Assembly: GCA_965247115.1 (NCBI GenBank)
Contig: CBDFGR010000002.1
Coordinates: forward strand, 512,001-576,000
DNA from: Myxococcota bacterium
GTDB taxonomy: Bacteria > Myxococcota_A > UBA9160 > SZUA-336
Length of the DNA: 64,000 nt
Direction of reading: 5' to 3'
The notes beneath the pieces were generated by a model. The model saw nothing but the letters and a program-made list of their open reading frames with translations, did no database searches and was not told where the DNA came from. This document shows, one piece after another, positions 3,678-27,031 of this stretch. Position numbers and translations under genes: made by a program. Each line of letters begins with the position of its first letter. The stretch's first letter is position 1.

Positions 3678-5108
3678 ATGGGTGCATTTGCGGAGTATGA
3701 GAGTTACGACGCTGTGGGGCTGGCCGAGCTCGTCGCGAAGGGTGAGGTGTCGGCCGAAGATCTGCTCGACTCGGCGATCGCGCGCGCGGAGGAGCACAAC
3801 CCGACGCTGAACGCTGTCGTGATCACGCTGTACGACGAGGCAAGGGCAGCGGTCCGGGCCGGGCTGCCGAGCGGACCGTTGCGGGGGGTGCCCTACCTGC
3901 TCAAGGATCTCGGTGCCCACTACGGTGGGGCGCGGATGACTTCCGGCAGTCGCTTCTTCAAGGACTACGTGTCGGACCACGACAGCGAGCTCACGGCGCG
4001 CTACAAGCGCGCGGGGCTGGTGGTGTTCGGGCGCAGCGCCTCGCCGGAGTTCGGACTCACCTGCACGACCGAGTCGACGTTGTTCGGACAGACCCGAAAC
4101 CCGTGGAGCCTGGAGCACACGGCGGGCGGATCCTCAGGGGGTGCCGCCTCGGCCGTGGCAGCCGGCATCCTCCCCAGCGCGCATGCCAGCGACGGTGGAG
4201 GCTCGATCCGGATCCCGGCGTCGTGCTGCGGCCTCGTCGGCCTGAAGCCCACGCGGGCGCGCAATCCGCTCGGACCTGATGTCGGCGAGAACTGGAGCGG
4301 GATGAGCACGGTGCACGCCGTCACACGCTCGGTTCGGGATAGCGCCGTCCTGCTCGACGCCACGCACGGCCCCGCGCCGGGCGATCCGTACTACGCCCCC
4401 GCGCCAGACCGCCCCTTCGCGGCGGAAGTCGGCCGCTCGCCGGGAAAGCTGCGGGTCGCGCTCCAGACCCAGACCTTCAACGGGGCCGAGACCCACCCGG
4501 ATTGCGTCTCGGCCGCCGCCGACGCTGCGAAGCTCTGCGCCGAGCTGGGCCATGAGGTGAGCGAGGCGACCCTCCGCGTCGACTCGGAGGAGCTCGCGCG
4601 AGCAACGGGCGCCATCGTGAGCGGGAACATCCTGTTCCTCCTCGAAGACCGCGCGCGGACCCTCGGGCGTTCCCTTGCCGAGGGCGACGTCGAGCCCCTG
4701 ACCTACCAGATGGCGCGGCGCGCGGAGTCCGCTGGCGCCGCCCGCTACGCCCGCTCGATCCGCGCAATCCATGCCGCGGGGCGCCAGGTCGCGGCCTTCC
4801 TCGAGCGCTACGACGTCCTGCTCACACCGACCATCGCCACGCCGCCGCTCCCGCTGGGCGGCGCGCTGACCTTGACCCACCCCGATCCCGAAGAGCATCT
4901 CGCCAGCCTGGTGCGAATGATCGGCTTCACCCAGCTCTTCAACGCGTCGGGGAACCCGGCGATCTCCGTACCGCTTTGCTGGAACGAGGCTGGACTCCCG
5001 ATCGGCGTGCAGCTCGCGGCGCGCTTTGGCGACGAGGCGACGCTGCTGCGCCTCGCCGCGCAGCTCGAGGAGGCGCGTCCCTGGTTCGAGCGGCGCCCGC
5101 CGCGCTAG
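3678..5108 (+). CDS. Amidase signature family amidase
   Basis: [21 protein letters not shown] catalytic motifs; ATG at 3678 preferred to the long 2922 extension that overlaps the HD-GYP gene. Confidence 0.92.
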
Positions 5109-23624: not shown

Positions 23625-24830
23625 GTGAACCGAGGGGCTCTGGAAGGCCTGTCCGTTGTGGAGCTGGGGCGCATGGTAGCGGCGCCCTACTGCGGAAAGG
23701 TCCTCGCTGACCTCGGAGCCGACGTGCTCAAGCTCGAGCAGCCGAGGGTCGGCGATCCAGCGCGGCGTCAGGGGCCGTTCCCAGCGGATGTGCCACACCC
23801 CGAGCGCAGCGCCCTCTTCCTGTACCTGAACACGAACAAGCGCTCCGTCACGCTGGCCCCGAACAACGAGGCAGGACGCCAGGTGTTCGAGCGGCTCGTG
23901 GCAGAGGCGGACGTGCTCATCGAGGACTGCGCTCCCGGGGAGCGGCAAAGCCTCGGGCTCGATCTGGCGCAGCTCCGCGAGCGGAACCCGAGCCTCGTCA
24001 TCACGTCGATCACTGCCTTCGGAGAGACAGGACCTTACCGCGACTACCGCAGCCACCACATCAACCTGTATCACGCCAGCGGCCACACTTCGTTCGGCTA
24101 CAAGGACCAGCAGGAGGACGGGCGCCCGCCGCCAAAGGCCGGTGGCTACCTCGGCGAGTACGACGCCGGACTCACTGCCGCGGTGGGCACGCTGGCGGCG
24201 ATCCTCGGTCGCGGCCAGGACGGCCAGGGACAATGGGTAGGCGTGTCGAAGCTCGAGGCGCTGATGTGCATGGAACGCGTCGACATCGGACGCCTGACGA
24301 ACGATCCGAATCCCCAGCCCTGGCGGGGTGGCATTGGCGGGATGATGAAGGCGAAGGACGGCTACTGCATGATCACGGCGTCGCAGGACCACCAGTGGCA
24401 GGGGATCGTTCGCGCCATGGGCAACCCGGAGTGGGCGCAGAGCGAGCGGTTCAAGGACGAAGCCTCTCGCCTCGAGCATCGCGACGCCATGCGGGAGAAC
24501 CTTGACGCGTGGGCGGCCGTGCACACGCGCGACGAGATCTACCACCTGCTCCAGTCGGAGGGTACACCCGCTGGACCGGTCCGGAACGTGGCCGAGGTCC
24601 TCGAGTCGCAGCAGTCCCGGTCACGCAACTACTTCGCGAGGGTCGAACACCCAGTGGCCGGAGCACAGCAGTATCCGACCCTGCCCTATCTGTTCTCGCT
24701 CTTCTCGGACGCTGCAACGCGGACGAGCCCCGCCCCGCTGCTCGGTGAGCACAACGACGAGATCTACTGCGGGCAGCTCGGCCACACGCGAGAGGAGCTG
24801 TCTCAGCTCGCCGACGCAGGAGTGATCTGA
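23625..24830 (+). CDS. Class III CoA-transferase, subunit with Glu at the catalytic Asp position
   Basis: LEGLSVVELG, LNTNKRSVTL, LGEYDAG, APLLGEHN. Confidence 0.9.
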   Translation: MNRGALEGLSVVELGRMVAAPYCGKVLADLGADVLKLEQPRVGDPARRQGPFPADVPHPERSALFLYLNTNKRSVTLAPNNEAGRQVFERLVAEADVLIEDCAPGERQSLGLDLAQLRERNPSLVITSITAFGETGPYRDYRSHHINLYHASGHTSFGYKDQQEDGRPPPKAGGYLGEYDAGLTAAVGTLAAILGRGQDGQGQWVGVSKLEALMCMERVDIGRLTNDPNPQPWRGGIGGMMKAKDGYCMITASQDHQWQGIVRAMGNPEWAQSERFKDEASRLEHRDAMRENLDAWAAVHTRDEIYHLLQSEGTPAGPVRNVAEVLESQQSRSRNYFARVEHPVAGAQQYPTLPYLFSLFSDAATRTSPAPLLGEHNDEIYCGQLGHTREELSQLADAGVI

Positions 24831-26059
24831 TGCCCGGCGCTGGAGAAAGCGGCGAAGGGCCCCTAGCCGGCATCCGCGTCACGGACTTCACCTGGGCCTG
24901 GGCCGGGCCGCACGCAACGCTGCTGCTGTCCATGCTGGGAGCGGAAGTAATCAAGATCGAGAGCCGCACGCGCATCGACCACAGCCGCCTGCGCTCGCTG
25001 ATGGGGGGCGCTACCCAGGGCGGCCCGGATGCCTCGCCCCTCTTCAACGATCTCAACCTGAACAAGTGCTCGCTCACGCTGAACCTGCGCGAGGAGCGCT
25101 CGCGAGAGATCGTGCGCAAGCTCGTGGCGAAGAGCGACGCCGTACTTCAGAACATGCGTCCCGGCGTCCTCGACCGGCTTCGACTTGGCTACGACGACCT
25201 GCGCGCTGTGAAGCCAGACATCATCATGCTCTCGTCTTCGGCCGTCGGAGCCACGGGCCCCGAACGAACCTATGCGGGCTATGCGCCCACTTTCGCATCG
25301 ATGAGCGGCATGGCCCATATCACCGGTCACCCCGACCTGCCGCCGCTCCCGCTCAGCGGCTCCGTGGATCTTCGCGTCGGTACGGCCGCGGCCTTCGCGA
25401 CGCTCGCGGCGCTCTATCATCGCGGGCGCACGGGCGAAGGACAGCACATCGACCTGTCGTCGACGGAGATCATGAGCTCGATGATGGGCGAGGTCTTCCT
25501 CGGCTACGAGATGAGTGGCCAGGTCCCGGAGCGGATGGGCAACCGCGACATCACGATGGCCCCACACAACTGCTACCGCTGCCGCGACGAGGGCCGGTGG
25601 GTGACCATCGCGGTCGGCAGCGAGGAGGAGTGGTCCGCGCTGAAGCGAGCGCTCGGCGATCCCGCGCTCGATGAGGAGGGCTTCGGGGATCCCGCCTCCC
25701 GCTGGCGCAACCAGGCTCGCCTAGACCCGATCATCGAGCGCTGGACCGTGGAGCGCGAGGTCGCCGAGGTCGTGAAGACCCTCCAGGCGGCCGGAGTGGC
25801 CAGCCTGCCCGTGAACTCGGGCGCCCAGATCTCCCGTGACCCCCAGGTTCAAGAGCTGGGCATCCTCCAGAACATCGAGCACCCCCTACTCGGCGAGAAG
25901 GCCGTCGTCGGCGCCCCCTGGACCTTCAGCAACGCCAGCGTCGGAGTCCGCTACCCCGCCCCCCTCCTTGGCGAGCACAACCACTACGTCCTGAGCGACA
26001 TCCTCGGCCTCCCCGACTCAGAGATCGACCAACTAGAAACCGACGGCGTCCTCAACTGA
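24830..26059 (+). CDS. Class III CoA-transferase
   Basis: PLAGIRVTDFTWAWAGP, GAEVIKIE, SVDLRVG, APLLGEHN; TGATG coupling to previous gene. Confidence 0.92.
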   Translation: MPGAGESGEGPLAGIRVTDFTWAWAGPHATLLLSMLGAEVIKIESRTRIDHSRLRSLMGGATQGGPDASPLFNDLNLNKCSLTLNLREERSREIVRKLVAKSDAVLQNMRPGVLDRLRLGYDDLRAVKPDIIMLSSSAVGATGPERTYAGYAPTFASMSGMAHITGHPDLPPLPLSGSVDLRVGTAAAFATLAALYHRGRTGEGQHIDLSSTEIMSSMMGEVFLGYEMSGQVPERMGNRDITMAPHNCYRCRDEGRWVTIAVGSEEEWSALKRALGDPALDEEGFGDPASRWRNQARLDPIIERWTVEREVAEVVKTLQAAGVASLPVNSGAQISRDPQVQELGILQNIEHPLLGEKAVVGAPWTFSNASVGVRYPAPLLGEHNHYVLSDILGLPDSEIDQLETDGVLN

Positions 26060-26165
26060 TAACTTGGGGACGGTCCTTAAATCATAACTTCTTCTCGAGC
26101 GACGGTGGAGGCCCGCAACGCTTCGAAAAGAAGTTATGATTTAAGGACCGTCCCCAAGTTATCAG
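26056..26165. repeat. REPIN/MITE-like long inverted repeat (38-bp perfect arms, 34-bp partly self-complementary spacer)
   Basis: CTGATAACTTGGGGACGGTCCTTAAATCATAACTTCTT (26056-26093) is the exact reverse complement of 26128-26165. Confidence 0.9.
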
Positions 26166-27031
26166 GGAGTGTTGGAGCGGAGGAAGGTGAGGATTTCGGT
26201 CTGGGTTTCGGGGGGCTCGGTGGCGGTGCCGTGCTCGGCGCCTTCGACGGCCAGGCAGCGGACGTTCGGGCGGCCTTCGGCGAGGGCGTGCCAGCCGACG
26301 TCTGGGAAGACGCTGTCGGCGGTGCCGTAAACACAGAGCAGCGGCATCTCGAGCTCGCCGAAGCGCTTGGTCGCGTCCCAGTCGACGTAGGCCGCGTATG
26401 TGCGGAGCTCCCCCGCGTACTTGGCCATGCGCTCCTCCCGGGGGACCTTTGCGAGCTGAGCCCGGATCTGGTCGCGCCGGCCTCCGCGCGCGCTCTGCTC
26501 TCCCGCGGCGGTGGAGGGCCTCGAGGCGGCGAACAGGTCGAGACCGACGGTACCGCCCTCGCGCCGGGCAGCGTAGGCGGCCTCGACGCCATCGGTCTCG
26601 AGGATACGGATGCGCGCACGCAGCTTTGAGAGCAGCTCCTCGTCCTGCGAGAGCCAGGGTGCCGACTCCGCAACGACCAGACCCGCGGCGGCCTCGGGAT
26701 GGTCGAGTCCGAAGGCAAGGGTGATCGGACCGCCCGCGGACGTTCCCCACACGTGGGCGCGCTCGTGACCCAGGTGCCGCAGCAGCTCGCGGATGTCGTC
26801 CGCAAACTGCTCCATGGTGTGCCGCGTCTCGGGATAGCCCGAGCGGCCAGACGAGCGCCTGTCGTACAGGATCACCGAAAAGTGTTGTGCGAACGACTCG
26901 ACCCATGTCGGTACGCCGGCGCCAGCCCCCGTCCCGAGTCCGCCGAAGCCGCCGTGCACGAACACGAGCGGGAAGCCCGAGCCGTGCGTCTCGTAGTAGA
27001 GCTCGGTCCTGTTGATGGCTGCCGTGGGCAT
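26162..27031 (-). CDS. Alpha/beta hydrolase
   Basis: LYYETHGSG.PLVFVHG, YDRRSSGRS, GTSAGG nucleophile elbow, GTADS, GAEHG. Confidence 0.9.
   Translation of the reverse strand: MPTAAINRTELYYETHGSGFPLVFVHGGFGGLGTGAGAGVPTWVESFAQHFSVILYDRRSSGRSGYPETRHTMEQFADDIRELLRHLGHERAHVWGTSAGGPITLAFGLDHPEAAAGLVVAESAPWLSQDEELLSKLRARIRILETDGVEAAYAARREGGTVGLDLFAASRPSTAAGEQSARGGRRDQIRAQLAKVPREERMAKYAGELRTYAAYVDWDATKRFGELEMPLLCVYGTADSVFPDVGWHALAEGRPNVRCLAVEGAEHGTATEPPETQTEILTFLRSNTP

Follow-up and report, generated by a model that had tools for sequence, protein, structure and literature searches.

Why should two convergent genes both lose G at their silent positions, each on its own coding strand, just where they run into a palindrome? 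The question is raised by a locus in the window, i.e., the whole stretch of 64,000 nucleotides analysed from a Myxococcota bacterium whose genome (G000) comprises 5.17 Mb with 66% GC. A + strand gene for a CoA-transferase of family III (24830..26059; 409 amino acids; PF02515, E 2.9e-104) there meets a - strand gene for an alpha/beta hydrolase (26162..27031; 289 amino acids; PF00561, E 1.4e-22). Both are host genes with a recoded 3' end. Between them lies an inverted doublet of a TIR-type repeat, composed of a left arm (26056..26098, + strand, with the core GGGGACGGTCCT at 26066-26077), a 24-nt spacer without strand assignment (26099..26122) and a right arm (26123..26165, - strand). The left arm overlaps the stop codon of the CoA-transferase gene, the right arm that of the hydrolase gene. 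The arms, of 43 nt each, are 98% complementary; the predicted folding energy is -50.4 kcal/mol for the full doublet (z -14.8) against only -1.4 for one arm on its own (z -0.03), and a search of Rfam with the long hairpin returned sub-threshold miRNA matches only.

The G depletion on both sides of the palindrome had been described in a sequence-only reading of the window, the counts of which are exact on recount. In the left footprint (25862..26056), a G- and T-poor, C-rich segment where the + strand enters the element, the last 65 codons of the CoA-transferase gene have 1 G and 29 C at 35 four-fold degenerate sites; in the right footprint (26165..26338), where the - strand enters, the last 58 codons of the hydrolase gene have 2 G and 32 C at 37 sites. 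The first 64 codons of the CoA-transferase gene have 15 G at 41 sites, and the amidase junction near 5108/5112 is as G-rich as had been claimed (20 and 18 G of 42). The depletion was drawn too narrowly, in that T is lost together with G, and the proteins do not stay as intact as had been supposed, since amino acids are shifted alongside the silent sites (within 150 nt, Pro x1.35, His x1.33, Val x0.79, Met x0.49).

Against the genome mean for gene ends, 0.371, binomial P values are 1.9e-6 for the CoA-transferase and 9.0e-6 for the hydrolase; these segments were picked post hoc, and the genome-wide control therefore weighs more. Genes were called with a hexamer gene finder of our own, which gives 4520 genes and 86% coding DNA. 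Of the 443 convergent junctions that have no element within 600 nt (mean G 0.37), none has a pooled G of 0.07 or less. The mean at 21 convergent junctions with an element is 0.205, and the junction in the window ties for the lowest value, 0.07. Gene ends with G of 0.10 or less number 15 of 69 within 150 nt of an arm versus 27 of 3835 more than 500 nt off, so that ordinary gene ends are normal genome-wide. Orthologs lacking the element are normal as well, in the case of aroC (see below) and of the CoA-transferase, where five such orthologs have 11-17 G at 34-42 four-fold sites; for the hydrolase, no ortholog was obtained at E<=1e-30 in 40 relatives. Among the strain contig matches listed for the window (40 of 298), the locus runs into an arm in X10 and X2, and the density of strain differences near it is not clearly raised (15 in 1338 nt for X10, 9 in 428 nt for X1).

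The palindrome belongs, as one inverted doublet, to a dispersed repeat family; a Y1-HUH transposase gene is likewise flanked by arms of this family, an arrangement of the TIRtron type. G000 has 101 arms with the core GGGGACGGTCC out of 115 candidates, the doublet in the window among them; a stricter arm pattern has 87 matches in G000 and 70 in its sister species, G002, and 39 other relatives are free of it. The TIR is dispersed as singles, dimers and clusters, its 95 outer arms being paired (54) or lone (41), and element clusters prefer convergent junctions (37 of 72 clusters versus 287 of 2086 gaps). At G000:C3:2177079-2178064, between aroC and mutY, inverted arms bracket a gene that matches PF01797 with 32.3 bits (cut-off 23), has an HYH motif and a downstream Tyr, and reaches 78.4 bits against NF047646 (cut-off 80) over its N-terminal 151 amino acids. 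C-terminal helix-turn-helix matches are weak (HTH_23, E 6.6e-4; Bac_DnaA_C, E 4.8e-3; both below the curated cut-offs) and lie in a second frame in G000. The gene is frameshifted there, and the frameshift is real, since the contig of run X6 is identical at this place; the contig of strain X10 is one base shorter at L001:1413, and arithmetic then yields a single frame of 279 codons that includes the HTH. The frameshift in G000's own gene speaks against a nuclease model, although one strain, X10, is free of it. The nearest homologues are from records titled Deltaproteobacteria or Myxococcota, and TIRs of homologues read GGGGACGT, GGGGACGG or GGGGTCAG; a PDB search gave 4ER8 (TnpA_REP) at an E of 0.46 only. 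The remaining five of the six PF01797 matches in G000 have no arm in the flanks examined.

Other arms of the genome are likewise skewed, as is evident from counts binned by orientation and distance. The strand entering an arm has lost G and T and gained C and A, and this effect fades by 300-400 nt. Upstream of the 95 outer arms, in genes running in, four-fold G amounts to 0.13, 0.15, 0.21, 0.24, 0.30, 0.35 and 0.38 in bins to 600 nt (genome 0.39), which places it at 0.13-0.15 within 100 nt. Near the arms, two-fold purine sites have G at 0.49-0.54 versus 0.87, and two-fold pyrimidine sites have C at 0.93-0.99 versus 0.80. At the 41 lone arms, the mirror image is present on the opposite side. 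The coding strand of 36 genes running away from elements is depleted of C (409 C versus 552 G, P 4.6e-9), and from this mirror skew it follows that the effect tracks the DNA strand and not the gene. The skew beside the palindrome is real, and it acts at the DNA level. Fork direction has no influence on the footprint, with values of 0.209 and 0.210 for leading-type and lagging-type strands, on replichores that a weak skew defines only roughly. Stalling of forks or priming of Okazaki fragments at the repeat, which would give a one-sided, replichore-dependent skew, is rejected, as no such skew is seen; a double-strand break with 5' resection is rejected as well, because the opposite polarity would be expected. 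Ordinary gene starts have no skew. Strong hairpins in general are out as the cause, since the strongest non-repeat hairpins (top 40, 120 or 300) have no effect, with G at 0.39 for the top 40; a 24-copy repeat family is also without footprint (G 0.46).

The sister species G002, about 86-88% identical to G000, is a single natural knockout, resting on one species pair. Its transposase gene is cleanly deleted between aroC and mutY, where one full and one truncated arm remain, and the transposase protein has no match in the assembly, which is 95% complete. The comparison covers 1509 aligned genes, about 2.4 of the 5.8 Mb of G002. Where both species have the element (31 genes), G in G002 is exchanged for C in G000 at 78 sites and the reverse at 41 (P 0.0009), G being lower in G000 for 19 genes and higher for 6. 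With the element only in G000 (15 genes), the exchanges are 30 versus 18 (P 0.11); with the element only in G002 (28 genes), there is no net shift (50 versus 56). Empty orthologous sites are partly skewed already (G 0.26-0.33 versus 0.376), and several of them carry visible remnants of arms or of the S/U repeats treated below. In aroC, which starts at the TIRtron, C/(C+G) over the first 60 codons rises from 0.19 in G000 to 0.37 in G002, with 28 other relatives at 0.38-0.84, and the remainder of the gene has 0.51-0.69 in all 30 genomes. Within 300 nt on the aroC side, 36 differences between G000 and G002 go with the footprint and 9 are opposed to it; on the mutY side, there is no net shift (34 versus 29). 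Among 16 polarised strain SNPs beside the TIRtron, 8 go with the footprint, 7 against it, and 1 is neutral. Another genome of the same genus, G001 (73% complete), has neither an arm match nor aroC and is thus unable to polarise the changes. The weaker footprint in G002, which is devoid of the gene, fits a dependence on the enzyme, whether as deepening in G000 or relaxation in G002; a host-wide rate difference would fit, too. Non-synonymous G>A differences from G002 number 91 versus 53. Total divergence at four-fold sites is barely raised, at 0.296 near elements versus 0.280 elsewhere, and the footprint therefore looks like a slow, biased by-product, a bias rather than hypermutation.

Two-lineage fits, with additive and free models, put entering-strand G>A, G>C, T>C and A>C at about 1.4-4.6 times background. 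With one process for both lineages, a model of added mutation beats one of fixation bias in all three data sets, and it loses in two of three when the weights of the ancestor and of G002 are free, a freedom by which every fitted model improves; these fits do not firmly separate added mutation from fixation bias. With gene and distance allowed for, a C as the 3' neighbour gives purine-to-C change a strong advantage, lowering G:C x0.57 (z -7.4) and A:C x0.38 (z -8.6) across 227 genes. The corresponding values are x0.52 and x0.40 in G002 and only x0.89 at 504 control genes, and the trend is alike in the three other genomes described below. When the C is the 5' neighbour, G:C is unaffected (x0.95) and A:C is lowered less (x0.74). 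In genes running away, the 5'-G effect that would be expected falls short of significance (x1.04, z 0.3). Run-length slippage is rejected, as a following CC adds little (z -1.6), and so is transition-only deamination, which predicts 21% A at four-fold sites versus the 10% seen. Seen from the leaving strand, the changes amount to A>G, C>G, T>G and C>T, most of which follow a G. A 5'-GX-to-GG signature is typical of E. coli Pol IV. The purine-to-C change boosted by a 3' C resembles DinB errors, in a context that is only partly Pol IV-like. Both G000 and G002 have three genes for Y-family polymerases (PF00817) and MutS. For P. aeruginosa Pol IV, A>C is described at template A with a 5' G and/or a 3' C (PMC12318082), and uncorrected replication errors of E. 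coli are described to favour T and G as leading-strand template (PMC8510543).

The best reading of the footprint, to which a probability of about 0.42 is given, is nick-primed outward patch synthesis that escapes correction. A nick set by the Y1-HUH nuclease in one strand, within the repeat or close to it, would leave a free 3'-OH from which patch synthesis of 100-300 nt would be primed in outward direction. Uncorrected errors of a low-fidelity polymerase, likely a DinB-like one, would then add G and T to the strand leaving the repeat; with the leaving strand as the newly made one, these errors would be dG opposite T, G or A, and dT opposite G, and they would have to escape mismatch repair. 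On the displaced old strand, which would be single-stranded, deamination of C and A would push in the same direction. Such errors would match the strand bias of uncorrected replication errors in E. coli (PMC8510543) and, in part, the Pol IV signature (PMC12318082), and the reading also draws on what is described for related enzymes: HUH cleavage leaves a 3'-OH able to prime synthesis (PMC3333891, PMC8266576), and E. coli TnpA_REP, for which priming of host polymerases from this end has been proposed, cuts more than 400 nt to either side of a BIME in vitro (PMC3333891). We infer nicking of the repeat by the enzyme in vivo, the identity of the leaving strand as the new one, the acting polymerase and the escape from mismatch repair, and the nuclease would, by the same token, be the presumptive cause of the footprint. 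Against patch synthesis speak a second repeat family, S (see below), which has the polarity although no nuclease gene bracketed by it was found, the zero mean skew of distant TIRtrons, the nearly flat divergence, the fits with free weights, the even split of strain SNPs, the flat mutY side, the non-significant 5'-G effect and the restriction of the knockout to one species pair. The proposal of the sequence-only reading that an HUH/RAYT-type enzyme leaves a local footprint in the DNA has gained support from the arm-flanked HUH gene and from a skew that follows the strand, and none of the three outcomes named there as refuting it was obtained, since other copies are skewed and neither orthologs without the element nor ordinary gene ends are G-poor; its wording as a palindrome-directed mutagenesis system overstates the case, in view of the nearly flat divergence and of a nuclease whose causal part is presumed. 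In a bolder, rather tentative version, domesticated RAYT/TIRYT nucleases might nick their repeats in vivo so often that each copy would be a tiny bidirectional start of error-prone synthesis, by which some 300 nt of host gene per side would be recoded, amino acids included.

Patch synthesis is to be weighed, at first, against the same nick with the roles of the strands reversed. The 5' end would be blocked by the enzyme, and the entering strand would be chewed back 3'-5' and refilled towards the repeat; the leaving strand, exposed meanwhile, would suffer deamination of C and A, and bypass of abasic sites or misalignment would insert C and A. Polarity and range would equal those observed, and a base on the entering strand indeed tends to become its 3' neighbour if that is C, as template misalignment predicts. 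The free models also suggest less C>T on the entering strand (0.24-0.76), which is expected if this strand is renewed. This route is nevertheless unlikely, since the excess of A given by transitions alone would call for much extra transversion, copying of a 3' A at four-fold sites is not significant (z -1.1), and C:C and C:A mispairs are needed, which are rarer polymerase errors than G:T.

Similarly unlikely is a host process acting at several protein-bound or structured repeats, through a host nuclease or through R-loops from outward transcription that expose the G-rich strand, with the HUH enzyme merely spreading the repeats. It draws on two further repeat families, S and U, at which the polarity is as at TIR arms, though weaker. 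Family S, unrelated-looking and present as 137 intergenic segments, has G at 0.30 in the 98 segments without a nearby TIR arm, and no nuclease gene bracketed by it was found. The end motif CTTnGGGAC is rejected as its trigger, as the end with the motif is the weaker side (G 0.31 versus 0.18) and 229 in-gene copies are unskewed. At S sites common to both species, the skew is stronger in G000 (36 versus 19, P 0.03), which could reflect a host-wide difference. A host process would also accord with the weaker footprint and the same context effect retained by G002 without the gene, and with the taxonomic distribution, as distant TIRtrons are mostly without footprint and high-GC kin of delta/Myxococcota type have it. 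In a survey of TIRtrons from many phyla (72 of 80 loci used, 8 with short upstream flank being left out; 51 with TIR, 48 of them with enough flank), 21 left and 21 right flanks of the 48 are C-skewed, with a mean of zero for this raw skew, which is not codon-resolved; the distant elements without net skew may be young insertions. Three other genomes, with enzymes 56-70% identical and a different TIR, have G within 150 nt at 0.25, 0.25 and 0.20 versus 0.39, 0.49 and 0.44. They are a biased sample, being the three that held the pattern out of five picked for skewed TIRtron flanks, with 8-10 loci each; in one of them, G041, genes running away barely respond. Against a host process stand the unaffected strongest hairpins, 24-copy repeat family and ordinary gene starts, and a footprint that is strongest at TIR arms and graded with the presence of the enzyme at aroC. 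Moreover, S often adjoins TIR arms (39 mixed clusters), and its skew may remain from lost arms.

Improbable is that a C-rich entering strand is favoured by selection or by biased fixation, a class of models that includes Rho utilisation or unstructured RNA ahead of the hairpin, which the sequence-only reading had offered as its second model. The preference of the elements for convergent junctions, the flat total divergence, the better fit of fixation bias in two of three data sets with free weights, and the YC dinucleotides created by purine-to-C change before C would all be in line with it. The Rho model finds no support, however, because the C-rich tract is translated or, in genes starting at the element, where the skew is mirrored, lies on the antisense strand, and because the read-through RNA is G-rich. 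In addition, a preceding pyrimidine gives C no advantage over G (x0.95), amino acids of the host genes are pushed as well, as seen from the non-synonymous G>A differences, and none of the 443 element-free convergent junctions needs such a tract. That the repeats insert preferentially beside already C-rich sequence would explain the partial skew of orthologs where only one species has the element, but it is very improbable, given the arm or S/U remnants at several empty sites, the normal orthologs in element-free genera and a skew that is still diverging at shared sites.

Summarizing, the element itself is of a known kind, and for its flank footprint no published account was found in a literature search covering main texts and few subscription journals. 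In one genome, a neighbouring repeat shapes the choice of codons and amino acids at the ends of about 230 genes, a pattern that can pass for selection, Rho sites or horizontal transfer. According to 10.1101/2021.07.10.451892, no study went further than in vitro cleavage in connecting REPIN function to RAYT; a footprint with strand polarity, weaker where the enzyme gene has been deleted, would offer a genomic measure of activity in vivo, with testable geometry and spectrum. If the bolder version with frequent nicking holds, some 190 repeat clusters would subject a few per cent of the coding DNA to a switchable mutation bias imposed by the repeats, and the footprint would constitute a fossil record of enzyme activity. 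What the present locus contributes are orientation and fork controls, an enzyme-less species and a directional context signature.

Among known systems, the layout matches, as judged from its sequence features, that of TIRtrons and not that of GTAG-type REPs. In TIRtrons/TIRYT (Di Nocera et al. 2013, PMC3733652), equivalent to subclass 2.1.2 of TnpA_Y1 (Quentin et al. 2018, PMC6006769), a Y1-HUH gene is located between terminal inverted repeats, as here. Common to both are a GGGG-led motif and TIRs that occur singly, as dimers and in clusters. The G000 core GGGGACGG agrees with GGGGWSAS at 7 of 8 positions, and the C-terminal HTH/Bac_DnaA_C similarity is weak, below the curated cut-offs; in the main texts of these two sources, the word 'skew' is absent. 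Unlike GTAG-type REPs, the G000 arm has no GTAG foot, the tetranucleotide GTAG/GTGG being absent from its consensus, and no stable single-arm hairpin; that a single arm barely folds sets it apart from them. Like the doublets of G000, the REP/BIME/REPIN elements associated with RAYTs are inverted and hug stop codons at convergent junctions, with a single cognate HUH gene that is lost or frameshifted in some lineages (PMC3333891, PMC8266576, 10.1101/2021.07.10.451892, 10.1101/119735). REP/RAYT cleavage yields a 3'-OH that may prime synthesis, and cleavage in G000 would be of the same type; a flank mutation footprint is not described for these systems in the available portions of the four sources just named.

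With the Pol IV (DinB) signature of P. aeruginosa (PMC12318082), the footprint shares A>C at an A with a 3' C. That signature differs in including a 5' G, in having no neighbouring mutations and in being found at regions of replication problems, whereas the footprint in G000 is strand-fixed and repeat-centred and comprises also G>C, G>A and T>C, with the 5'-G effect not isolated. A Rho utilisation site, i.e., a tract with more C than G in ribosome-free nascent RNA upstream of where transcription terminates, is unlike the G000 tract, which is coding or antisense. In the repeat-induced mutagenesis of yeast (PMC3681665), mutation likewise affects both sides of an inverted repeat, in yeast through an error-prone polymerase, but over a kilobase range after a double-strand break and resection; by 5' resection of this type, the entering strand would be exposed, and its deamination would be expected to give the opposite polarity. 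In G000, by contrast, the footprint extends over about 300 nt and is present at lone arms as well.

A collapsed perfect palindrome of the terminal inverted repeat (TIR) arm is located at G000:C3:1368480 in the genome under study, at the convergent junction with the lowest G fraction at four-fold sites (0.13) among those classed as element-free. This palindrome was missed by the arm search pattern. For the genes beside the inverted doublet in the window (24830-27031), no close ortholog is present in the sister species, G002; the best match of the CoA-transferase in that species is 44%, and no ortholog of the hydrolase was found in 40 relatives.

GC-rich multi-hairpin repeats, designated family S, occupy 137 intergenic segments genome-wide (e.g., C1:125405 and C2:405849) and are frequently joined to TIR arms. 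Their footprint is weaker at the end carrying the stop-hugging motif, with a G fraction of 0.31 versus 0.18 at the opposite end. Among 41 genomes compared, high family S copy number is confined to G000 and G002. A further repeat family, marked by the 18-mer GACCGGTTCGAACCGGGA, comprises 24 intergenic segments, and no G loss was seen at the four-fold sites flanking them.

At the TIRtron, the transposase locus L001, one contig of run X6 (record 25) carries a different transposase allele joined to the aroC flank (L001:650-1592; 27 differences in 178 nt), which suggests that alleles have been swapped at the same site. The mutY gene directly adjoins the TIRtron (L001:1955-3091), and pairs of arms are found near two other genes as well, at a distance of no more than 4 kb from the best PF00817 gene and 2 kb from a MutS_V gene (G000:C3:1260016; G000:C3:2223783); this proximity to all three genes may be due to chance.

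Besides the TIRtron gene, there are five mutually related PF01797 matches, L002-L006, which share an upstream motif, except in the L002 flank shown; no TIR arms are found in their flanks shown. The inverted repeats of family U (e.g., C2:978156 and C1:157136) possess a GGGGGACGT core that resembles the TIRs of the homologues L184, L185, and L189, and the family is possibly a remnant of another TIRYT, the enzyme class of the TIRtron transposase.
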